Notes: a model not told the origin generated them from the letters alone. Counted from the stretch's first letter, positions 3,939 through 64,000 are shown. The stretch is DNA of 64,000 bases from an uncultured Bacilli bacterium (GCA_947588765.1 CANPZG010000002.1:9794-73793), one strand, 5' to 3'. A program made the numbers and translations.

Positions 3939-3971
3939 TTGTTAGATATTCAAATCTAACAATTTTTATTT
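3939..3971 (+). terminator. Rho-independent terminator of 3353..3931
   Basis: Stem TTGTTAGA (3939-3946) / TCTAACAA (3955-3962), then TTTTTATTT. Confidence 0.8.
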
Positions 3972-5860
3972 GTGTGCCGTGCATGGCATATATCTAGTTG
4001 GTGAAAGACCAATACACGCATAGGTATCGATGAAGTGTTAGGGAAGCACAAAGCATTAACAGTGATGTTAGGGCTAAAGGAAGTGTGGAACAAAATCGAG
4101 GGCTAACGAACAGAAACTTACTATAAGGCTATATAAACGGATAAGGTTGCTTAACAAACTAAAGTCCAAAAGATACTCGTAACTTTATATAGTAAAGTAA
4201 GTAGCTAATCGAGGAAAGATATATGTCTTACCGCGGGAGGTCTCATAGACATGAAAGTCAGGGAAACGACGAGGAGTACAAGGACAAGTAATGGTCGAAA
4301 AAGGTTTACTATGAGAAGTCAGCCGAGGTCGTAGTACTAGTTAGTTAGGAAGGACTGAATAATTTGTAGTTTTTACTACTGAAATTGGAATAGGTTAAAG
4401 TCAGAATAAATAAAAGGAAGAGTACCAAGCGTAACTTGGGAACGTGCCTCAAAAGATGATTAACCTATGAGCGAAATTAGAAAGGTGGAAACAGATATGG
4501 AACTTTTAGAGAAAGTACTTTCCAAAGACAATCTAAACAATGCCTATAAGCAAGTTTACAAAAACAAAGGAGCAAGTGGCGTCGACGGAGTAACAGTAGA
4601 CGAATTATTTTCTTATATCAAAGAACATAAGGAAGAGATACTTTATCAAATAAGAAATAGAAAATATAAACCACAACCAGTAAGAAGAGTATATATTCCA
4701 AAAGAAAACGGGAAACTTAGGAAACTAGGAATACCAAATGTCATAGATAGGGTATTACAACAAGCAATAGTACAAGTCTTAACCCCAATATATGAAGAAC
4801 AATTTTCTAATAATTCATATGGATTTAGAATAGGAAGAAGTTGTGAACAAGCAGTTATAAGAGCCCTTGAACTATTTAATGATGGATATGATTGGGTAGT
4901 AGATATAGACTTACAATCATTCTTTGATGAAGTAAACCAAGATAAACTAATAGGTATTATAAGAAGAACCATAAAAGATGGAAACCTAGTATCTCTAATA
5001 AGAAAGTTCTTACAAAGTGGAGTAATGGAAAAAGGAGTAATACAAGAAACAAATAAAGGGACACCCCAAGGAGGAAACCTAAGTCCATTACTATCAAACA
5101 TAATGTTAAATGAACTAGATAAAGAATTAGAAGCAAGAGGATTAAACTTTGTAAGATATGCAGATGATTGTCTAATAATGGTAAGAAGTGAAAAAGCAGC
5201 AAATAGAGTAATGGGAAGTATAACAACATTTATAACTAAGAAATTAGGACTAAAAGTAAATGTAGAAAAGAGTAAAGTAGCAAGACCTAATCAAATTAAA
5301 TACTTAGGTTTTGGATTTTACAAGAAAATTAATCAAAGTAAATGGAGACCAAAGCCACATATTAAATCAATGGAAAAATTTAAAACTAAAATACATGATA
5401 TACTTATAAGAAGTAGAAATGTAAAACTAGATACAAGATTAATTAAATTGAAACAAATAATATATGGATGGGTCAACTATTTTAAAATTGCAGACATGAA
5501 AGTATTTCTTAAGGAAATAGATAAATGGATAAGACGAAAACTTAGAGTTATCATATGGAAACAATGGAAAAAGGTAAGGAAAAGATATACTTGCCTCAGA
5601 AAACTCGGCATAGGTCATATAGATGCATATATAACAGCGAATGCTAGAAGAGGATATTATCATGTAGCTCATACCAGAGTGCTAGAAACTGCAATCTCAA
5701 AAGAAAGATTAAATAAAAGAGGTCTAGTAAATTCACTAGACCATTACCTAAAAGTTCATGTTATTACAAATTAAACCGCCGTATACCGAACGGTATGTAC
5801 GGTGGTGTGAGAGGGTATCATATCAATAAGTCAAATTATTGAAAATTTACTCTACTCGAT
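3972..5860 (+). mobile_element. Group II intron, class C (IIC)-like, with intron-encoded RT/maturase
   Basis: 5' GTGTG at 3972. A GC-richer structured region runs 3972-4460. Domain V hairpin at 5775-5806 has a CGC triad. Putative domain VI has a bulged A at about 5854. The 3' boundary is approximate (+/-10 nt). Confidence 0.8.
4467..5774 (+). CDS. Group II intron reverse transcriptase/maturase (no endonuclease domain)
   Basis: 435 aa. RT blocks include GVDG, PKxNGKLRxLGIP, TPQGGxLSPLLSN and YADD, followed by the maturase X domain (YGWVNYF). No HNH/En domain follows. Confidence 0.95.
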   Translation: MSEIRKVETDMELLEKVLSKDNLNNAYKQVYKNKGASGVDGVTVDELFSYIKEHKEEILYQIRNRKYKPQPVRRVYIPKENGKLRKLGIPNVIDRVLQQAIVQVLTPIYEEQFSNNSYGFRIGRSCEQAVIRALELFNDGYDWVVDIDLQSFFDEVNQDKLIGIIRRTIKDGNLVSLIRKFLQSGVMEKGVIQETNKGTPQGGNLSPLLSNIMLNELDKELEARGLNFVRYADDCLIMVRSEKAANRVMGSITTFITKKLGLKVNVEKSKVARPNQIKYLGFGFYKKINQSKWRPKPHIKSMEKFKTKIHDILIRSRNVKLDTRLIKLKQIIYGWVNYFKIADMKVFLKEIDKWIRRKLRVIIWKQWKKVRKRYTCLRKLGIGHIDAYITANARRGYYHVAHTRVLETAISKERLNKRGLVNSLDHYLKVHVITN

Positions 5861-17708: not shown

Positions 17709-18596
17709 TTAAATAATTTTAAATATATATTTTAATAAATTATCTTTAATAATCTTATCTTCTAATTTATTAATTGAAAATGTTTTACTACCAGCATAAT
17801 TAAGAGATGCTCCACAATGATAAATCTCTTTTTGATCTAATATAATGTATCGATCATGAAAATCATTATTATAAACTATATTTAGATTATTGTATTGTTT
17901 TTGATATTTATTTATATCTATTTCTTTTAATAAACAATTATTTTTACAGATTATAGTTACATTAACTTTTAAATTTCTTATCATATCTAAAACACTTTTA
18001 TCGGCATAGTTATCAATAATAATTATGTTATTATCTGCTTCTTTTAAAATATCAACTATTTTTGAATAAGCATCATAAATTTGCCCATTAAAATAAATTT
18101 CATTATCTTTTTTCTTTTCTTCGAATTTATTAAAGGATTCTTGTAATAATTTAATATCTTCATCATGTTTTATCACTAAATTATTAATATATTTTTGTTG
18201 AATCAATTCATTAGAAATATATTTTCGCATCAAAACAAAGGCACGCATAATGCTAATGCTTACTTTTGCGGCAACCGAAGTTCTTAAAATACTTGCAAGC
18301 ATAGCAACTCCTTGTTCTGTGAAGACATATGGATTTTTTCGAACTCCTCCATATTCTTTTAAACTTGAAGTCCCACTTTGGGACTTCAAGTTTAAAAATT
18401 CTTCATTAGTTAATTGAAAATAAAAATCATTAGGAAATCTATCAATATTCCTTTTTACCGACTGATTAATTGTTTTCGTACCATTTACACATTTATAAAG
18501 TTTTGCTAAATCAGAGTCTAACATTACTTGTTTTCCTCTTACTTCATAAATTATGTTTTCAATTATTCTTTCATCTAATACTTTAATATTATTCAT
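17709..18596 (-). CDS. ORF6N (KilA-N-related) DNA-binding domain protein
   Basis: N-terminal IYEVRGKQVMLDSDLAKLYKCVNGTKTINQSVKRNIDRFPNDFYFQLT is a typical ORF6N domain. The C-terminus has FHDRYIILDQKEIYHCGASLNYAGSKTF. Confidence 0.75.
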   Translation of the reverse strand: MNNIKVLDERIIENIIYEVRGKQVMLDSDLAKLYKCVNGTKTINQSVKRNIDRFPNDFYFQLTNEEFLNLKSQSGTSSLKEYGGVRKNPYVFTEQGVAMLASILRTSVAAKVSISIMRAFVLMRKYISNELIQQKYINNLVIKHDEDIKLLQESFNKFEEKKKDNEIYFNGQIYDAYSKIVDILKEADNNIIIIDNYADKSVLDMIRNLKVNVTIICKNNCLLKEIDINKYQKQYNNLNIVYNNDFHDRYIILDQKEIYHCGASLNYAGSKTFSINKLEDKIIKDNLLKYIFKII

Positions 18597-18772
18597 TTGT
18601 AATTCCCCCCCTATTTACATAACTAGACTATATCAAACAACTGTTCATATGTCAATGATATTTTAATTATTTTTTTGTTCGAAATTTGCGACCAAAAAAT
18701 ATTCACTTTCTTTATCAGTTAATTTAAAACAAATTTTTTCTGAAAATATTTCTATATTTTCTTTGCTAGTAA

Positions 18773-55004: not shown

Positions 55005-56960
55005 ATGATTAAGATGAAAAAAAATAATATTTTTATTTATCAATTAGTCATTATTTTTTTTCTAATTGCGAGTTTGCGATTAGTTTATTTAAATATGGTG
55101 GAAAAACCAACATTTAAAGAAAAATTAATTGCCAAAACGGAAATTATTGTTAATGGTTCTTCAGCTCCTAGAGGAAGAATTATTGATACTACTGGTAAAA
55201 TTATTGTGGATAATAAAGGAATTAATACAATTTATTATAATAAAATAAAAGGAATATCTTTAAAAGAAGAGTTAGATATTGCTTTACGTTTGGCTAGTAT
55301 CATAGATATAAAAAAAGATAATATTGAGGCTTTAAAAAAGTATTGGTTAATATTGCATAATAACGGTAAAAGTTTAATTACGGATGAAGAATATGAACTT
55401 TTAAGGATGCGAAAATTAACTATTGATGAAATAAATCAAAAAATAGATGAAAGAATCCCTTTGGAAGATTTAGAGGATCTAAGTGATATCGAAAAAGAAC
55501 AAGCTAATATATATTATTTAATGAATAATGGTTTTACTTATCAAAAAAAGTTAATTTTAAATAACCCATCAGATGAAGCGATAGCTAAAATTGTCGAAGA
55601 AGAAATACCCGGCATAACTATTGAAGTAAATTGGGAAAGAGAATATTTATATGGTAATGTCATGAGATCTATTTTAGGTAGTATTGGTAGTATTCCGGTT
55701 GAAGAAAAGGATGAATATTTAAAAAATGGTTATGAATTAACGGATATTGTGGGTAGAAGTTATTTAGAAAAAGAATATGAAGATTATCTAAAGGGCGAAA
55801 AAGGCATATACAAAGTAAATAAAGATAATACTTTAACTTTAATTAAAGAACCTAAAAAAGGTAATGATTTAGTTTTAAATATTGATATTGAATTACAAGA
55901 AAAGATAGAAGAAATACTAAAAGATAAAATTTTATTTGGAAAAAAGAATTATGCCAATACGGAATATTATAAAGAAAGTTATGCTTTAGTTAGTAATCCT
56001 TTAACGGGGGATATTTTAGCCATGGCCGGACAAAGATTAAATGATGATGGTTCTTTTTCGGATGTTGCCACCAATAATATTACAAATACTTTTACAATTG
56101 GAAGTGCCGTTAAAGGGGCAACTATTGGGGTGGGTTATAAATATAATTTAATTGAAGCTGGCAAATATATCACGGATGGTTGTGTTAAGTTATATTTTGT
56201 TCCGGCGAAGTGTTCCCATAAAAGATTAGGTAGAATTAATGATTTAGATGCTTTAGCGAAATCTAGCAATTATTTTCAATTTTTAATTGCCATCAATTTA
56301 ACGGGTAATAAATATAAACCAAATATGCAGTTAAATGCGACGGAAGAACATTTTAATATCTACCGTGATATGTTAGCATCATTCGGCCTAGGTGCTAAAA
56401 CTAATATTGATTTACCTAATGAAGTTGAAGGAATTAAAGGTTCTGAAATCGCTGATGATTTACTTCTTAATTTAAGTATTGGTCAGTATGATACTTATAC
56501 CCCAGTTGAAGTCATTCAATATGTTAATAGTGTGGCCAGTGGTAAGAGAATGAATTTAAATGTTATGCAAAAAATTATGGATAACGATGATATTGTTAAA
56601 GAAAGAGATGTTAACGTTTTAAATGAAGTTGATTTAAATAATGAATACTTAGATAGAATTAGATTAGGGATGAATAAAGTATTATTGGAAGGTACTGGTA
56701 AAGGTTATGTACCGGTAGAATTAAAACCCGTGGGTAAAACGGGAACTAGTGAAACTTTTATTGATGCCAATAATGATGGAAAAATGGATGCAGCGACTAT
56801 TACATCCACTTTCGTGGGCTTTTTCCCTAAGGATAATCCCAAATATAGTGTTGTAGTCATAACTCCTAATATATCACATAAAAACGGGGTAAATGATACT
56901 ATGTATTTTGGGGCTAGAAGAATAACTAATGAAATAACTACTTATTTAGCTAATAAATAA
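55005..56960 (+). CDS. Class B penicillin-binding protein (PBP2/MrdA-like)
   Basis: N-terminal TM, then SAVK, SSN and KTGTSE motifs. Confidence 0.88.
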   Translation: MIKMKKNNIFIYQLVIIFFLIASLRLVYLNMVEKPTFKEKLIAKTEIIVNGSSAPRGRIIDTTGKIIVDNKGINTIYYNKIKGISLKEELDIALRLASIIDIKKDNIEALKKYWLILHNNGKSLITDEEYELLRMRKLTIDEINQKIDERIPLEDLEDLSDIEKEQANIYYLMNNGFTYQKKLILNNPSDEAIAKIVEEEIPGITIEVNWEREYLYGNVMRSILGSIGSIPVEEKDEYLKNGYELTDIVGRSYLEKEYEDYLKGEKGIYKVNKDNTLTLIKEPKKGNDLVLNIDIELQEKIEEILKDKILFGKKNYANTEYYKESYALVSNPLTGDILAMAGQRLNDDGSFSDVATNNITNTFTIGSAVKGATIGVGYKYNLIEAGKYITDGCVKLYFVPAKCSHKRLGRINDLDALAKSSNYFQFLIAINLTGNKYKPNMQLNATEEHFNIYRDMLASFGLGAKTNIDLPNEVEGIKGSEIADDLLLNLSIGQYDTYTPVEVIQYVNSVASGKRMNLNVMQKIMDNDDIVKERDVNVLNEVDLNNEYLDRIRLGMNKVLLEGTGKGYVPVELKPVGKTGTSETFIDANNDGKMDAATITSTFVGFFPKDNPKYSVVVITPNISHKNGVNDTMYFGARRITNEITTYLANK

Positions 56961-57810: not shown

Positions 57811-57991
57811 GTAAACTAAGAATTTTTCTTAGTTTTTTAAGTTGTAAATTGTCATGTATTTGACAATTTATTTTTTTAATATTTACATAAAAATTTTTTA
57901 AAAAAATTAACATTTATTACACAGTTCGACAAATTTTTTAAGATGGATGTGTTATAGTTATCATGTTTCTTTATATGAAGGGGGTGAAAAC

Positions 57992-58834
57992 ATGATAACA
58001 GAAACACTAGTTCCAACTTCTTTAGCTAATGATCTTTTATTTAAGGAAGTATTATCTCATCCTGATAATCGAGATAAATTAATTTATTTTTTATCTGTCT
58101 TAATGGACCTTAGTGAAGATTATCTAAAGAATAATTTCAAGAAAGTATTATACGAAAGTATTCTTTTAAAAACTAAGGTAAAAGATAAAGCGTATCGAGG
58201 CGATGTAGTAATTGAATTAAATAATTTAAAAATAAATTTAGAATGTTATTCAATCTTTGATAAAGCATCATTTATAAAATCATTATCCTATGTGCTTAGA
58301 ATATATTCAACAGGTATGGAAAGAGGAGATAAAGAATATAGTAAGATGGATAAAGTTATAGGAATAAATATAATAGATAATGTAAATTATGACTTTATGG
58401 AAGAAAAGGATTATTCAAAAGTAAAATTAGTATATGAAAAAAAGACAATTACTAACACCATAGAACTTGAATTTTATCGCCTTGACAAAATAAGGAATAA
58501 AACCTATAATGAAAGTGATAAAAAGATGCAATGGTTGAAGTTTATAGGAGCAAAGGACTATGAAGAAAGAAAGACCATAGCCAAGGGGGATGAGAGATTA
58601 ATGGAACTAAATGAATGGGTGGAAGCCTATATAAATGATGAACATACCAAAGAAGTGTATGGAAAATGGGCGGAAGAAATAGCCTTAAATAAAGGGATAA
58701 GAGTTGGAATAAAAGATACTACAAATTCAATAGCTAGAGAAATGATAAGAAATAGTTATTCAAATGAAGAAATTCAAAAAATAACTAAATTATCAATAAA
58801 AGAAATAAATGAACTTAAAGAAGAAATGAAATAA
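57992..58834 (+). CDS. Rpn-family PD-(D/E)XK recombination-promoting nuclease / putative transposase
   Basis: ATG 57992 sits behind GGGGGTG. DLLFKEVLSHPDN..., RGDVVIELNNLKINLECYS core and a C-terminal IAREMIRNSYSNEEIQKITKLSIKEI repeat. Confidence 0.75.
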   Translation: MITETLVPTSLANDLLFKEVLSHPDNRDKLIYFLSVLMDLSEDYLKNNFKKVLYESILLKTKVKDKAYRGDVVIELNNLKINLECYSIFDKASFIKSLSYVLRIYSTGMERGDKEYSKMDKVIGINIIDNVNYDFMEEKDYSKVKLVYEKKTITNTIELEFYRLDKIRNKTYNESDKKMQWLKFIGAKDYEERKTIAKGDERLMELNEWVEAYINDEHTKEVYGKWAEEIALNKGIRVGIKDTTNSIAREMIRNSYSNEEIQKITKLSIKEINELKEEMK

Positions 58835-58975
58835 TAATCATTTCTTTTTCTTTACATAAAAATATATTGTTTACAGTAAAATAAAATTATAAGACATTTT
58901 TATACATTTTCAAAATATTTTAATTTTGAAATTATTCGTTTGACAAAATTAACCAAAAATTTTTTATGAAAATAG

Positions 58976-59005
58976 TTGACTTTTTTTTTTTTTTTTTGAT
59001 AGTAT
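58976..59005 (+). promoter_or_regulatory. Promoter with T17 homopolymer in the -35/-10 spacer
   Basis: TTGACT (58976-58981), T-run 58981-58997 (17 T), extended -10 TGATAGTAT (58997-59005). The spacer is 18 nt. Confidence 0.6.
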
Positions 59006-59036
59006 GGGACTTGGAAAGGAGAGAATAAGAGGAAAT

Positions 59037-60839
59037 ATGAAAAATTTAAAGAAAATTGTATTTGGTTTACTAGCTATGCTAGTAATGGTTACGAGTGTTA
59101 ATGCTGCTGAAGTTAAAGGACCTAACGCAGTTGAATTAAAAAAATGTTTAAAGGGAACCGATGAAGTATGTACTTTAACAGAAGATATTACAGCAACAGG
59201 TTTTGTAAATGTTGAAAGAGATGTTACTATTGATTTAAATACGCATATCTTTACAATTAAAGATGATGTAGATCTTCAAGTTGATGCAGGTGTAACTTTA
59301 AATTTAAAAAATGGTACTTTAGTTCAAGAATCATCTGATTCTTATGCAGTTGAAGTATTTGGTAATATTGTAACTAGTAATTTAAAAATCAATGTTACTG
59401 GCGAATCAACTGATGGTGAAGGAGATACTGCTGCTATTTGGTTAAGAGGTGATGCTACAGATATCGCAACAGCTACAATTAGTGAAGATACAGAAATAAC
59501 AGTACCTCATGGTAATGGGTTAGCTTTCTCTGATCATATTAATGCAACTTTGAATGGAAAATGGGAAACATATTATTCTACAATTTATGCTGATGGTGCA
59601 AATAGTACAAGCAATGTAACAATTAATGGTGGTAATTATATCTCTACTAATGCTAATGCATTAAAGATTATAAAAGGAAATTGGACTATTAACAACGGTG
59701 TATTTACATCTAAAATTGATGATGCTGTTAATATAAGCGCAATCCCTAAAAAAGCAGAAAATTTATCTGTAATAATTAATGATGGTACATTTATTACTAA
59801 TGATTACTATCATAAACCAATTCATTCAGGAGCATTAGATGGATCAGAAGCATTAGAAGGATTTATATATGGTGGAATATATGAAACTCCAAATACTGGA
59901 TTAATAGATAAATATATTGCTGAAGGATATACATATATTACTACTTCTGAAAAAGATGTTACTCCAATAGTACAAAAAGTTGTTAAACCAATAAGTATTA
60001 TTGTTGAAAACGTAAATGATCCTGTTGAAAAATCAGATTTACAAAAGACATATTCTTATGATGCTACAGGAGCAAATACTAAATTAAAACAACTTTACTC
60101 TGGTAATACAATAAACTTAGATGAATTTTTAGGTATTCGTGCTTTAGATAATAAATATTATAAAGATTATACAGCAATAATAACTATAAAAGAAACCGGA
60201 GAAAAATTTTATACTAAGTTATATACAAACTATAATGCAGGGGGAATGTTTGGCTCTTATGTAATAGGACCAGATGATGCAGATAATTCATTTGTATTAC
60301 CTAAAGAAGATGTTACTGTAACAATTGAATTTGTAAAAACAGAAACTTTAAAACCACATACAGTTGAAGTTGCTGCAGATATAATAAATGGTAAAGTTTC
60401 AGTTGGAGGTAAAACTGAAGCTAATGAAGGAGAAATAATAAATATTACTGTAACTCCTAATGAAGGCTATGAAGTAAGTAAGGTTTTCGTAAATGGTGTT
60501 GAAATAACAGCTAACGAAGATGGAACTTATAGTTATGTAATGGGAGTAGAAAATATTGTAGTTTCTGCAGAATTTAAAAAAGTTGAAACACCAGTTCAAC
60601 CTCAAAACCCTACTGGAGATGGTAGTGAAACCGAATCTGGAAAAGGTGATGAAAATAATAATACTGGATCAACTAATGAAAATGAAAAACCAAATCAAAA
60701 TACAACAGAAAATAAACCAGCTGATGAAGTAATTGATAAAAATTCACCAACATTAGATAGTATTGTAAGCATCGTAACCCTTGCAATCTCAAGCTTAGGA
60801 ACAGCTGGATACTCAATTAAGAAATTTATTAGAAAATAA
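59037..60839 (+). CDS. Surface protein 1: signal peptide, beta-helix-like body, InlB-B-repeat-like domain, C-terminal anchor
   Basis: Real start is MKNLKKIVFGLLAMLVMVTSVNA behind AAGAGGA (the ORF-track start at 59004 lies in the promoter/5' UTR). Ends TLDSIVSIVTLAISSLGTAGYSIKKFIRK. Confidence 0.8.
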   Translation: MKNLKKIVFGLLAMLVMVTSVNAAEVKGPNAVELKKCLKGTDEVCTLTEDITATGFVNVERDVTIDLNTHIFTIKDDVDLQVDAGVTLNLKNGTLVQESSDSYAVEVFGNIVTSNLKINVTGESTDGEGDTAAIWLRGDATDIATATISEDTEITVPHGNGLAFSDHINATLNGKWETYYSTIYADGANSTSNVTINGGNYISTNANALKIIKGNWTINNGVFTSKIDDAVNISAIPKKAENLSVIINDGTFITNDYYHKPIHSGALDGSEALEGFIYGGIYETPNTGLIDKYIAEGYTYITTSEKDVTPIVQKVVKPISIIVENVNDPVEKSDLQKTYSYDATGANTKLKQLYSGNTINLDEFLGIRALDNKYYKDYTAIITIKETGEKFYTKLYTNYNAGGMFGSYVIGPDDADNSFVLPKEDVTVTIEFVKTETLKPHTVEVAADIINGKVSVGGKTEANEGEIINITVTPNEGYEVSKVFVNGVEITANEDGTYSYVMGVENIVVSAEFKKVETPVQPQNPTGDGSETESGKGDENNNTGSTNENEKPNQNTTENKPADEVIDKNSPTLDSIVSIVTLAISSLGTAGYSIKKFIRK

Positions 60840-60866
60840 TAAATTTAGAAATTTCCAAATTTCTCG

Positions 60867-60903
60867 AAAACGCTGATATCCCAAATACAGCGTTTTTCTT
60901 TTG
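60867..60903 (+). terminator. Terminator of surface protein gene 1
   Basis: AAAACGCTG (60867-60875) / CAGCGTTTT (60888-60896) followed by a T-run. Identical copy at 63671-63707. Confidence 0.8.
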
Positions 60904-60922
60904 TGTTAAAAAGTTTTTATAT

Positions 60923-60956
60923 AAATGTTGACTTTTTCAACATTTATGCATATACT
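60923..60956 (+). promoter_or_regulatory. XRE-gene promoter overlapped by a perfect 9-bp inverted repeat (candidate operator)
   Basis: AAATGTTGA (60923-60931), 5 nt, TCAACATTT (60937-60945). -35 TTGACT (60928-60933), 17 nt, -10 TATACT (60951-60956). Confidence 0.6.
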
Positions 60957-60989
60957 AATAGTGGAAAAATTATTACTGGAGGTGAGCAA

Positions 60990-61319
60990 ATGAAAGAAGT
61001 AAACTATGAAAAAATTGGTATGAGGTTAAGAAAAGCCAGAGAATACCTTGAGTTAACTCAAGAACAGGTAGCAAATATTTTAAATATTGGTAGAGATGCA
61101 ATTATAAGAATCGAAAAAGGAACACGAAAAGTTAGTGCTGATGAATTAAATAATTTTTCTCGTTTATATAAAATTAGTATGGACGAAATTATGGCAGAAA
61201 AGCCATATATTTCTAATGAACAAGCATATGCAAGGGGATTTAAAAAACTAAGTTTGAAAGATCAAAAAGAAATACTTGATTTGATAAAGTTAAAAAATGA
61301 GTATAGAAAGAATAAATAA
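60990..61319 (+). CDS. XRE-family helix-turn-helix transcriptional regulator
   Basis: IGMRLRKAREYLELTQEQVANILNIGRDAIIRIEKGTRKVSADEL is a canonical HTH_3. ATG 60990 sits behind GGAGGTG. Confidence 0.88.
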   Translation: MKEVNYEKIGMRLRKAREYLELTQEQVANILNIGRDAIIRIEKGTRKVSADELNNFSRLYKISMDEIMAEKPYISNEQAYARGFKKLSLKDQKEILDLIKLKNEYRKNK

Positions 61320-61413
61320 TTCAATTTATGTATAAATAAGTATAAGAAATGGAAAAAATAAATCTATTTCTTTTTGTTTGACAAAAATTGCAAAACTATT
61401 TTTATAAAAATAG

Positions 61414-61443
61414 TTGACTTTTTTTTTTTTTTTTTGATAGTAT
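61414..61443 (+). promoter_or_regulatory. Promoter with T17 homopolymer in the -35/-10 spacer (copy 2)
   Basis: TTGACT (61414-61419), T-run 61419-61435 (17 T), TGATAGTAT (61435-61443). Offset of exactly 2438 nt from copy 1. Confidence 0.6.
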
Positions 61444-61474
61444 GGGACTTGGAAAGGAGAGAATAAGAGGAAAT

Positions 61475-63643
61475 ATGAAAAATTTGAAAAAAATTGTATT
61501 TGGTTTACTAGCTATGCTAGTAATGGTTACGAGTGTTAGTGCTGAAGATTTAACAGCAATGCCTACTCCTGATGAAAATGGAGTTATTAAATTAGAAAGT
61601 AATGTAAATTTAAGTCAAACTTATGTAATTGAATCATATGTAACAATTACTATTGATTTGAATGGTCATACGATTACTGGTCCTACAAGTGGATATGCTA
61701 TTAATAATAAAGGTACATTAACAATTCAAGATACTGCTGAAACAAAAGGATTAATTACTTGTACAACTGAAGAAAATCAAAATTCATGCATTAGAAATGC
61801 TAAAAAATTAGTTGTTGATGGTGCAAAAGTAAATAGTGCAAAATTTGTTGCATTAAAAAATGAATCAACTGGTACAATGACTGTTAGAAATCAATCCGTT
61901 ATTTCTTCAGGGGTAGATAATTCTACAATAAAAGGTAATACTGCAACTATCTTTAATTTAGGTGATTTAACTATTGATAATAGTAAAGTAGAATCAACTG
62001 GTAGTCAAGGTGTAGCAGTAATGAGTTTGGATTATCCTGGACCTGAAGAAGGTGAAGGTAATGCAACAGCTACTATTACAAATAGTACTATAACTGCTAC
62101 AGGTTCTAAGAGTGTTGCCATCAATTCAACTAATGGTGGTGAAATGAAGGTTGAAAACTCTACTGTAGATTCCGTTGCTGCAAGTGGAAATGGAAGTGCA
62201 ATAATTAAAGATTCTACAATTAATGGTAGTGTTGCTGGTCCCGATAAGGATGTTGCTTTAGAAGGCGATATTAAAACTAAATATGTTGCAGTTGTTAAAT
62301 ATGCTAAAGAAAATTCAAAAATAGAATTAACTGCAAATGATAGTATTAATAATGATACAACTGTCGTACCTGAAGGAGTTACTTTAGTTATACCAAAAGG
62401 AATAAGTTTATCATTAGATCATAAAAAAGTATTTGGTTTAATGAAAAATGGAACACTTACAGTTAATGGTACGATTGAAGGTGAACTTGGTGCAGTAGCT
62501 TATAATGAAGAAACTGGTACTTATTATGCAACTTTAGAAAGAGCAATAGAAGATGCCAAGGATGGAGAAACTATTACAGTTTTGAAAGAATCTGAAGAAA
62601 CATATGATTATTTAACTTTAGATGAAAATTTTAAACCTGTTGGTAATAATAATGATGCTATTGAAATATTAGCTAAAAATGTTACTTTAAATCTTAATGG
62701 TCATAAAGTTGATGCAAATATTTTAGTTAATGCAGAAAAATCAATGACTATTGTTGATGAAGCTGGTAGAGGGGAATATAATGGTTCTCTTACAAATAAT
62801 GGTGAATTAACACTTGCTTCTGGATATTTTGCAAAACTTCCAGTAACTGGTGAAAATGCTACAACTAATTTAGTTGGTGGTACATTCCCAGCAAATCAAG
62901 TGTCTGAAGATTTATTACCTGAAGGTAAAGAATTATCTAAAAATACAGATGGTACTGTTTCAATAGTTGATTCAAAAACTAATGAACCAGCAGATACACC
63001 TCAAGATAAGCCTACTGGTGAAGGTGATGGTAATGAAGAAACTGAATCAACAACTGAAGTAAAAGTAGAAGAAACTGAAGGTACTAAAGAAGTAACATTA
63101 TCAACTGAAGCTAATGATGTATTAAGAGATTCTTTAGCTAAAACAGAAGATAAAGAACTACAAGAATTTTTAGCAAATAATAATGTAACTGTACATTTAG
63201 AATCTAATAAAGTTGCTAGAGAAAATGTTGCAAAAGATGTAGTAGCAAAATTTGAAAGTGTTATAAAAGGTGCAACTGTAGCTGAATACTTTGATTTAGA
63301 TATTCTAGTTACAGCAGAAGGACAAGATGTTCATTATCTAAAAGAATTAAGTAAACCAATAACACTAACAGTTGATCTACCAAAATTACCAGAAGTAGCT
63401 AAAGGATATACAAGAACATACTATATCCTAAGAGAACATGATGGTAAAGTAGAAAAACTAGATGCAACATTAACAGAAGATGGTAAATTATCATTTGCCA
63501 CAGATAAATTCTCAAAATATGCAATAGCATATGAAGATGTAAAAAACCCAGGTACATTAGATAGTATTGTAAGTATCGTAACCCTTGCAATATCAAGTTT
63601 AGGTACAGCCGGATACTCAATTAAGAAATTTATTAGAAAATAA
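61475..63643 (+). CDS. Surface protein 2: same signal peptide and anchor as protein 1, different beta-helix-like body
   Basis: MKNLKKIVFGLLAMLVMVTSVSA... The body is rich in N/T/G repeats (NSTITATGS, VENSTVDS). Same C-terminal TLDSIVSIVTLAISSLGTAGYSIKKFIRK. Confidence 0.8.
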   Translation: MKNLKKIVFGLLAMLVMVTSVSAEDLTAMPTPDENGVIKLESNVNLSQTYVIESYVTITIDLNGHTITGPTSGYAINNKGTLTIQDTAETKGLITCTTEENQNSCIRNAKKLVVDGAKVNSAKFVALKNESTGTMTVRNQSVISSGVDNSTIKGNTATIFNLGDLTIDNSKVESTGSQGVAVMSLDYPGPEEGEGNATATITNSTITATGSKSVAINSTNGGEMKVENSTVDSVAASGNGSAIIKDSTINGSVAGPDKDVALEGDIKTKYVAVVKYAKENSKIELTANDSINNDTTVVPEGVTLVIPKGISLSLDHKKVFGLMKNGTLTVNGTIEGELGAVAYNEETGTYYATLERAIEDAKDGETITVLKESEETYDYLTLDENFKPVGNNNDAIEILAKNVTLNLNGHKVDANILVNAEKSMTIVDEAGRGEYNGSLTNNGELTLASGYFAKLPVTGENATTNLVGGTFPANQVSEDLLPEGKELSKNTDGTVSIVDSKTNEPADTPQDKPTGEGDGNEETESTTEVKVEETEGTKEVTLSTEANDVLRDSLAKTEDKELQEFLANNNVTVHLESNKVARENVAKDVVAKFESVIKGATVAEYFDLDILVTAEGQDVHYLKELSKPITLTVDLPKLPEVAKGYTRTYYILREHDGKVEKLDATLTEDGKLSFATDKFSKYAIAYEDVKNPGTLDSIVSIVTLAISSLGTAGYSIKKFIRK

Positions 63644-63670
63644 TAAATTTAGAAATTTCCAAATTTCTCG

Positions 63671-63707
63671 AAAACGCTGATATCCCAAATACAGCGTTTT
63701 TCTTTTG
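63671..63707 (+). terminator. Terminator of surface protein gene 2
   Basis: AAAACGCTG / CAGCGTTTT followed by a T-run; duplicate of 60867-60903. Confidence 0.8.
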
Positions 63708-63796
63708 CTTAAAAATAGTTCTGTTTACAAAATAGAAAAAATATTTAGCAAAAAATTTATTGCTATTTTGTGATTTAATGGTAAAGGAGTAATTAA

Positions 63797-63844
63797 ATTT
63801 ATATAGACATTTATATAGACATTTATATAGACATTTGCTATAAT
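63797..63844 (+). repeat. Three perfect 12-nt tandem repeats (ATTTATATAGAC) plus a degenerate fourth unit carrying the -10
   Basis: Units at 63797-63808, 63809-63820 and 63821-63832. Then ATTTGCTATAAT (63833-63844), which contains the extended -10 TGCTATAAT. Confidence 0.9.
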
Positions 63845-63863
63845 TTATTCAAGAGGGTGAATC

Positions 63864-64000
63864 ATGATAAATGTAATAGAAGATAAAAGAAATGAATTTA
63901 AGGCTAAATTAACTGACGATTTAGAAAAAGAAGTTATTTCATTTTTAAATACTGATGGAGGAAATTTATTTATTGGAATTGATGATAAAGGAAATATCTC
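63864..64000 (+). CDS. AlbA_2 (Schlafen-like) domain putative DNA-binding protein, 3'-truncated by window edge
   Basis: MINVIEDKRNEFKAKLTDDLEKEVISFLNTDGGNLFIGIDDKGNI matches the E.K...L.K.I.AF.N..GG.L.IG(I/V)DD.G pattern. RBS AGAGGGTG. Confidence 0.6.
   Translation, partial: MINVIEDKRNEFKAKLTDDLEKEVISFLNTDGGNLFIGIDDKGNI

Follow-up and report, generated by a model that had tools for sequence, protein, structure and literature searches.

Phase variation driven by repeats in promoter spacers has been worked out mainly in pathogens belonging to Mycoplasma, Neisseria and Haemophilus. In Neisseria meningitidis porA (poly-G) and opc (poly-C), and in Haemophilus influenzae hifA/B (TA repeats), a simple-sequence tract lies between the -35 and -10 boxes and sets their spacing, with graded or ON/OFF expression of a surface protein as the outcome. 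The M-like genes of streptococci (emm, mrp and enn) form a sortase-anchored family in which a conserved signal and a conserved anchor enclose variable middles; control by a homopolymer in the promoter spacer is not known among them. Here we describe a locus that resembles both kinds of system: two tandem genes for predicted surface proteins, at 59037-60839 (gene 1) and 61475-63643 (gene 2) on the plus strand of a 64,000-nucleotide stretch of DNA, hereafter the window, from an uncultured Bacilli bacterium (GCA_947588765.1 CANPZG010000002.1:9794-73793). Both promoters contain a run of 17 T's in their spacer. We consider it probable that this is a slipped-strand phase-variable (contingency) locus for a small family of surface proteins, secreted and anchored by the C-terminus, in an uncultured Bacilli bacterium of low G+C content that probably comes from the rabbit gut.

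As in porA, opc and hifA/B, the tract lies where its length determines the spacing of the promoter boxes. Those genes, however, belong to Gram-negative pathogens, have shorter tracts (about 9-14 nt) and are single genes with no cassette-flanked family around them, whereas the present tracts comprise 15-19 T's in one species and G8 in a relative. The likeness to emm, mrp and enn lies in the proteins and their arrangement: a conserved N-terminal signal and a C-terminal sorting-type signal (motif, hydrophobic helix and basic tail) surround variable bodies, the paralogues stand in tandem, and recombination takes place between conserved ends. Unlike the M-like proteins, the motif is NPxT(L/F)D and not LPXTG or NPQTG, the latter being found only in homologues from a related metagenome-assembled genome (MAG; contig L012).

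The mycoplasmas offer a further parallel. The ON state of the Mycoplasma hyorhinis vlp genes is an A17 tract, the same length as the T17 runs of the window. Like vlp, and like maa2 of M. arthritidis and vmm of M. mycoides, the locus consists of clustered surface-protein paralogues with one promoter each; as in vlp, the 5' region and signal peptide are strongly conserved, and a long homopolymer or repeat separates the -35 from the -10, a position at which insertions and deletions switch transcription in vlp, maa2 and vmm (PMC2268961, PMC10502178). An earlier note on this DNA had called the locus vlp-like, and the description is apt for the proposed mechanism and for the conserved, homopolymer-bearing 5' region. 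It does not extend to the proteins: Vlps are lipoproteins whose signal contains a lipobox Cys and whose in-frame tandem repeats differ in size, whereas the window proteins have a type I cleavage site (VNA|A), their coding regions are without such repeats, and curated family searches gave no sequence homology to Vlp. They are, in addition, predicted to be anchored at the C-terminus and are accompanied by an extra conserved 3' cassette (anchor and terminator), and their host, unlike the hosts of vlp, has penicillin-binding proteins and a cell wall. The locus is not a member of the Vlp family.

At the vpma locus of M. agalactiae, too, the promoter of a variable surface protein has a poly-T directly preceding its -10 box. 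Variation there is the work of the Xer1 recombinase, which moves a single promoter, and the tract is not the driver (PMC2268961). In the window, by contrast, each gene has its own tract-bearing promoter, and the locus showed neither an invertible element nor a site-specific recombinase.

The switch mechanism is thus already known; what is new is the lineage, the protein family, the occurrence of poly-T and poly-G in a pair of sister lineages, and the apparently diverged NPxT(L/F)D signal. A clear example in uncultured commensal gut Bacilli would extend the same bet-hedging logic to the surfaces of ordinary gut residents, and would combine several independently switchable genes, poly-T and poly-G across relatives, and cassette-mediated swapping of bodies. 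Because tract lengths are readable from existing read sets, the switch hypothesis is cheap to test.

Two genes with unrelated bodies share their ends

The two genes, predicted to encode secreted proteins of 600 and 722 residues, have unrelated bodies framed by two pairs of direct repeats. The 5' repeat (D2; 58935-59106 and 61373-61544) is 172 nt long, with 93% identity between the copies and an offset of 2438. It holds a TTGACA box, present in both copies (58941-58946 in the first, from 61379 in the second), followed by the promoter, the leader and the signal-peptide codons; from the -35 box through codon 21 the copies differ by only two mismatches. The 3' repeat (D1; 60738-60911 and 63542-63715) is 174 nt long, again with 93% identity, at an offset of 2804. 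Each copy holds the anchor codons (…NSPTLDSIVSIVTLAISSLGTAGYSIKKFIRK in the first), the stop codon, two hairpins (60847-60864 and 60866-60897 in the first) and a T-run, an arrangement that amounts to an intrinsic terminator: the two hairpins and following U-run fold at -14.5 kcal/mol (z = -4.5). For a 26-mer of the 5' cassette and a 33-mer of the 3' cassette, the 64-kb window contains exactly two occurrences each, against an expectation of zero.

At the protein level only the ends can be aligned. BLASTP between the two products gave one match over residues 1-73 (44%) and another over the final 33 (94%), and nothing in between. Together, the repeat comparison, the alignment and the fold bear out what the earlier note had read from the sequence: twin genes with near-identical ends and unrelated bodies, a shared 5' cassette for promoter and signal, and a shared 3' cassette for anchor, two hairpins and terminator.

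A homopolymer fills the promoter spacer

The T17 runs, at 58981-58997 and 61419-61435, are the sole homopolymers longer than 10 nt in the window, whose G+C-content is 26.9%; the chance expectation for runs of at least 17 is approximately 0.009 in the window. A consensus scan placed both runs within a TTGACT-18-TAGTAT promoter with TG ahead of the -10 (58976-59005 and 61414-61443). In gene 1 the -35 hexamer TTGACT occupies 58976-58981, its last base doubling as the first T of the tract that is the proposed slipped-strand switch, and the extended -10 (TG, A, TAGTAT) occupies 58997-59005, with the hexamer itself at 59000-59005. The equivalent elements of gene 2 are TTGACT at 61414-61419, T17 at 61419-61435 and TG-A-TAGTAT at 61435-61443.

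Family promoters that lack the tract define the frame into which it fits. Six such promoters (from contigs L013, L014, L015, L016 and L022, and from the third gene of L020) all read TTGACA-17 nt-TAATAT or TTGACA-17 nt-TAAATT. In the promoter alignment those of L013, L015, L016 and the third gene of L020 line up with the TTGAC…TAGTAT of the tract promoters, so that the gene 1 -10 stands opposite TAATAT or TAAATT. TTGAC is kept in nearly all promoters of the family, tract-less ones included, the exception being TTTAC in L020. The fixed frame of the tract-less paralogues indicates that the tract fills a spacer otherwise held at exactly 17 nt. Scan and paralogues thus agree with the earlier assignment of a -35 TTGACT and an extended -10 in both promoters, separated by an 18-nt spacer that is essentially T17; in this frame the -35/-10 spacing of both genes is set by tract length.

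Tract length differs between assemblies

Comparison contigs were short-read metagenome assemblies of low coverage (3-9x). Across nine tract-bearing promoter copies, drawn from the window and seven of these contigs, the tract is T15, T16, T17 or T19, which corresponds to spacers of 16, 17, 18 and 20 nt, respectively. Promoter 1 is T17 in the window and in both L006 and L007. Promoter 2 is T17 in the window and in L019, T16 in L020 (where the -35 is TTTACT) and T15 in L003. Two copies from a second locus, described below, are T19 (L018) and T15 (L021). An invariant tract, which the earlier note regarded as incompatible with a switch, is not what these assemblies show. The contig L003 is particularly informative: over the 1,137 nt compared, two missing T's are the sole difference from the window, which indicates that the tract mutates faster than its flanks.

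A tract of different composition is present in a relative. In MAG Lapin-022 bin57 (L012, 692-719 and 2309-2338) the promoters of two tandem family genes both read TTGACA, 7 nt, G8 and TAGTATTAT. A run of eight G's is very improbable by chance in that genome. The G8 runs, like the tracts of 15-19 T's, reach the length of about 8 nt from which such repeats are expected to be hypermutable. That poly-G takes the place of poly-T at this position of the promoter points to selection on mutability, and not on A+T richness or curvature.

Two further contigs, from two samples, show a different alteration of promoter 2. In L001 (2357-2414) and L002 (2350-2407), equivalent to the window from 61411 onward, the tract is shortened to T7 and is followed by unrelated, G+C-richer sequence (GTACGAAATCGCTACGCGATGGTG…) that contains a small hairpin, ATCGC-TAC-GCGAT; both contigs stop at the same base. 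The appearance is that of a repeated or mobile element having inserted into the tract. The foreign sequence had no match in Rfam, and no copy was found in the window or in the other loci.

A probable slipped-strand switch and its alternatives

If the tract is a switch, then it would operate as follows. Each tract-bearing gene would have its own sigma-70-type promoter, with 15-19 nt of poly-T between TTGAC(T) and TG-n-TAGTAT. Slippage of the polymerase on so long a homopolymer would cause T's to be gained and lost at high frequency, and each gain or loss would change the -35/-10 spacing, leaving transcription high, low or off. With each gene switched independently, a population would come to carry mixed surface coats. 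We favor this explanation on account of the promoter frame, the polymorphism in tract length, the deletion of two T's in L003, the G8 equivalent, and the precedent of vlp, maa2 and vmm. Comparison of assemblies therefore supports the slipped-strand phase variation that the earlier note had proposed, and from it we infer ON/OFF switching of transcription, by spacing, within a population.

Several considerations weigh against this explanation. Homopolymer lengths may have been miscalled in short-read contigs of 3-9x coverage. Promoter 1 is invariant, with T17 in three of three assemblies, so that the commonest state gives an 18-nt spacer and not the 17-nt optimum. The length variation seen lies between assemblies, and heterogeneity inside one population is presumed from it. 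Transcription is predicted, from sequence, to start at the tract promoter, and the conserved TTGACA box upstream of it could be part of a different promoter or of an operator. Finally, the poly-T beside the vpma -10 of M. agalactiae has been shown experimentally not to switch (PMC2268961); a tract alone therefore proves nothing.

The behavior of vpma, the constancy of promoter 1 and the low coverage of the comparison contigs are also what might be cited in favor of a static promoter element, in which the poly-T is a rigid or curved A+T-rich spacer and differences in its length are neutral drift or assembly noise. Such a promoter might be constitutive, or it might be regulated, perhaps by the XRE-family protein whose gene lies inside the locus. 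We regard this as unlikely. Tracts of 15-19 nt give spacers of 16-20 nt, a range known to alter the strength of sigma-70 promoters strongly, and a neutral spacer is hard to square with tract-less paralogues that keep theirs at exactly 17 nt. The replacement of poly-T by poly-G in the related MAG speaks for selection on mutability and not on A+T content or curvature; moreover, L003 varies at no site other than the tract.

A role at the level of RNA is very improbable. Were transcription to begin from the upstream TTGACA box, then U17 would form part of the 5' leader, where it could pair with the Shine-Dalgarno region (GGAAAGGAGAGAAUAAGAGGAAA), or cause pausing or attenuation, its length tuning translation or read-through. 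Retention of the box at both 58941 and 61379 is consistent with such a role, as is a minimum-free-energy fold in which the U-run pairs with the purine-rich leader. The box, however, is not followed at 16-18 nt by any -10 partner on the plus strand and is absent from the second locus (L018), which still has the tract; and the lack of a G+C-rich hairpin before the U-run means that the run is not an intrinsic terminator. The leader fold is no better than that of shuffled sequence (z = -0.28), and pairing between the U-tract and the Shine-Dalgarno region was rejected on this basis.

That the twin cassettes and T17 tracts stem from mis-assembly or duplication of one gene family in the MAG is scarcely credible: metagenome contigs do often break at cassettes, but both junctions are reproduced in independent assemblies from different samples, with L006 running from EF-P through Rpn and promoter 1 to gene 1 (99.98% identity) and L020 from xre through promoter 2 to gene 2 and the 3' cassette behind it (99.67%).

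Gene bodies between the cassettes differ from strain to strain

Slipped-strand switching may be accompanied by a second layer of variation, in which the near-identical 5' and 3' cassettes would serve as homology arms for gene conversion, deletion or replacement of the body. Two contigs are relevant here. In L019 the body of another family protein (P0004, 682 residues) sits between the same 5' cassette as that of gene 2 and the same 3' cassette with its downstream flank; the downstream part is 97% identical to window positions 63543-64000. In L020 gene 2 (99.67% identical) is present, and is followed by a third family gene in place of the AlbA_2-like gene of the window. L020 and the window differ at nine positions, three of them in the promoter/5' cassette region, five in the 3' cassette and just one in the 2-kb body; this clustering in the cassettes is the pattern expected of gene conversion among them.

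Strain-specific bodies between the same cassettes are indicative of cassette-mediated recombination. The sequences of L019 and L020 thus support the view that such recombination is real at the level of strains, and with it the suggestion, made in the earlier note, that the cassettes permit swapping or deletion of bodies. Four contigs (L001, L002, L003 and L019) start or end inside or beside cassettes, which indicates that loci of this kind fragment metagenome assemblies.

A broader picture may be put forward, tentatively and with more doubt than confidence. Uncultured, cell-walled gut Bacilli would diversify their coats in two layers: homopolymer switches in promoter spacers, each acting independently, with the nucleotide of the tract re-invented (poly-T versus poly-G) in sister lineages, and swapping of cassette-bounded bodies, possibly helped by the Rpn nuclease encoded next to the locus. 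The proteins may be anchored by a previously undescribed NPxT(L/F)D sorting signal. If true, this two-layer system would be an instance of vlp-style contingency outside the wall-less Mollicutes, and in a commensal.

The encoded proteins: signal, body and anchor

The signal peptide of gene 1, MKNLKKIVFGLLAMLVMVTSVNA|A, has a type I cleavage site (VNA|A) and no lipobox Cys; gene 2 has the same signal peptide, ending …VSA|E. The two proteins share the start MKNLKKIVFGLLAMLVMVTSV(N/S)A, after which comes A or E, and in neither is there a lipobox cysteine after …VTSVNA|AE or …VTSVSA|ED. Beyond the signal, gene 1 consists of a variable N-terminal body and a Flg_new_2 (InlB B-repeat-like) domain at residues 442-516 (E = 3.6e-11), the only match to a curated family. 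No curated domain was found in gene 2, and neither gene had a match in NCBIfam.

At the other end, both proteins terminate in …T-L-D-SIVSIVTLAISSLGTAGYSI-KKFIRK, that is, in a hydrophobic helix with a basic tail; in gene 2 the anchor reads …NPGTLDSIV…KKFIRK, and the structure model places a helix at residues 695-721. The motif ahead of the helix is NSPTLD or NPGTLD in the window genes and NPQTGD in P0005 and L012, canonical NPQTG occurring only in the L012 homologues (P0005 and its upstream neighbor). In alignment A1 the N-P-x-T-x-D pattern has an invariant T and an invariant D, and its N and its P each occur in at least 90% of sequences. The LPXTG-anchor models of NCBIfam gave no match at E <= 0.1. 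Judged by its sequence, the family C-terminus looks like a diverged sorting signal, and NPxT(L/F)D may be a variant sorting motif. The products of genes 1 and 2 would probably be exposed at the surface.

The earlier note had described the bodies as beta-helix-like, a description that our data neither confirm nor reject. The AlphaFold model of gene 2, built from an alignment of 11 sequences, is poor (mean predicted local distance difference test score, pLDDT, of 54), and only the C-terminal domain, at about residues 530-690, is confident. Foldseek comparison of this model with the PDB returned no match at E <= 0.001 (best E = 0.03, TM <= 0.2), and beta-helix proteins appeared only among the lower-ranked, insignificant matches; phmmer against the PDB gave only noise. 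Tandem Repeats Finder detected nothing in the gene bodies beyond short arrays (2-3 copies), and no in-frame repeats of variable size. No record was returned by exact-protein look-ups of P0001, of P0008 or of genes 1 and 2 in their long-start versions.

Family members, a second locus and the host

A protein search revealed at least eight more proteins that begin and end with this signal and anchor. The proteins P0002-P0012 have these ends in common, and their bodies are mosaic: P0002, P0004 and P0006 contain C-terminal modules of gene 1, while P0003, P0007 and P0008 contain the C-terminal domain of gene 2. The family also occupies a second tandem locus, in which P0002 comes after an ABC-transporter operon (L018) and the 3' cassette of a P0002-type gene precedes P0007 (L021). 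L018 and the first-locus contig L007 come from the same sample and have the same coverage. In the related MAGs represented by L014 and L016 a family gene is likewise found downstream of L33/EF-P. Additional family members, whose absence the earlier note would have counted against its reading, thus exist both as individual proteins and as a second tandem locus.

The exact proteins were found on a 75-kb contig at NCBI. The contigs that nearly match the window were drawn from a single set of metagenome assemblies at ENA, and the MAGs that carry related loci bear the title 'uncultured Bacilli bacterium isolate Lapin-0xx'. A 22-mer of the leader had no match in the species-representative genomes of GTDB, and JGI metagenomes gave none for either the tract-containing pattern or the protein profile; across all the collections scanned, the family was found only in the one ENA assembly set and in the 'Lapin' MAGs of NCBI. 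The name 'Lapin' suggests an origin in the rabbit gut. The earlier note had raised the possibility that the host belongs to the Erysipelotrichia; this was not established, the relatives being labelled only as 'uncultured Bacilli bacterium'.

Neighboring genes and other features

Between genes 1 and 2, on the same strand, lies a gene for an XRE-family helix-turn-helix protein of 109 residues (60990-61319; Pfam HTH_3, 1.1e-9). The promoter scan gave it a promoter-like site of its own, TTGACT-17-TATACT, at 60928-60956. The immediate upstream neighbor of the locus, also on the plus strand (57947-58834), encodes an Rpn-family PD-(D/E)XK recombination-promoting nuclease/putative transposase, with matches above cut-off to both Pfam PF12784 (2.4e-15) and NCBIfam TIGR01784 (4.4e-16). 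This gene, which adjoins the locus, is a possible recombination helper; no paralogues of it were found among the other 295-residue open reading frames (ORFs) of the window. In the related MAG contig L014 the stretch from EF-P to the family gene has no similarity to the Rpn gene, and the ORF found there is unannotated. Farther upstream of the locus are genes for EF-P, L33 and a penicillin-binding protein, the last of which indicates that the host has a cell wall. In one strain the penicillin-binding-protein gene is interrupted: at about 1421-1863 of L007 (equivalent to the window near 55341) an insertion of approximately 40 nt splits it into ORFs of 115 and 535 residues.

Downstream of gene 2 is a perfect tandem repeat of 12 nt, ATTTATATAGAC (63797-63836; 3.3 copies), with the same copy number in L019. 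It overlaps the -35 of a strong promoter-like site, TAGACA-17-TATAAT with TG, which belongs to the AlbA_2/Schlafen-like regulator gene starting at 63866. Elsewhere in the window, a C7 run on the plus strand (18605-18611; G7 on the minus strand) lies in the Shine-Dalgarno region, 8 nt before the ATG, of a minus-strand gene at 17709-18596. Such a run stands out at 27% G+C and may be a further short mutable tract.

Within 3941-5774 the window also contains a group II intron, with matches to Rfam RF02001 and RF01998 at 4056-4355. A 435-residue ORF (4467-5774) stands where an intron-encoded protein would be expected and is a candidate for that role. Insertion after a terminator hairpin and T-run is typical of class C introns, and this intron starts just past a terminator-like hairpin and T-run (3941-3972).

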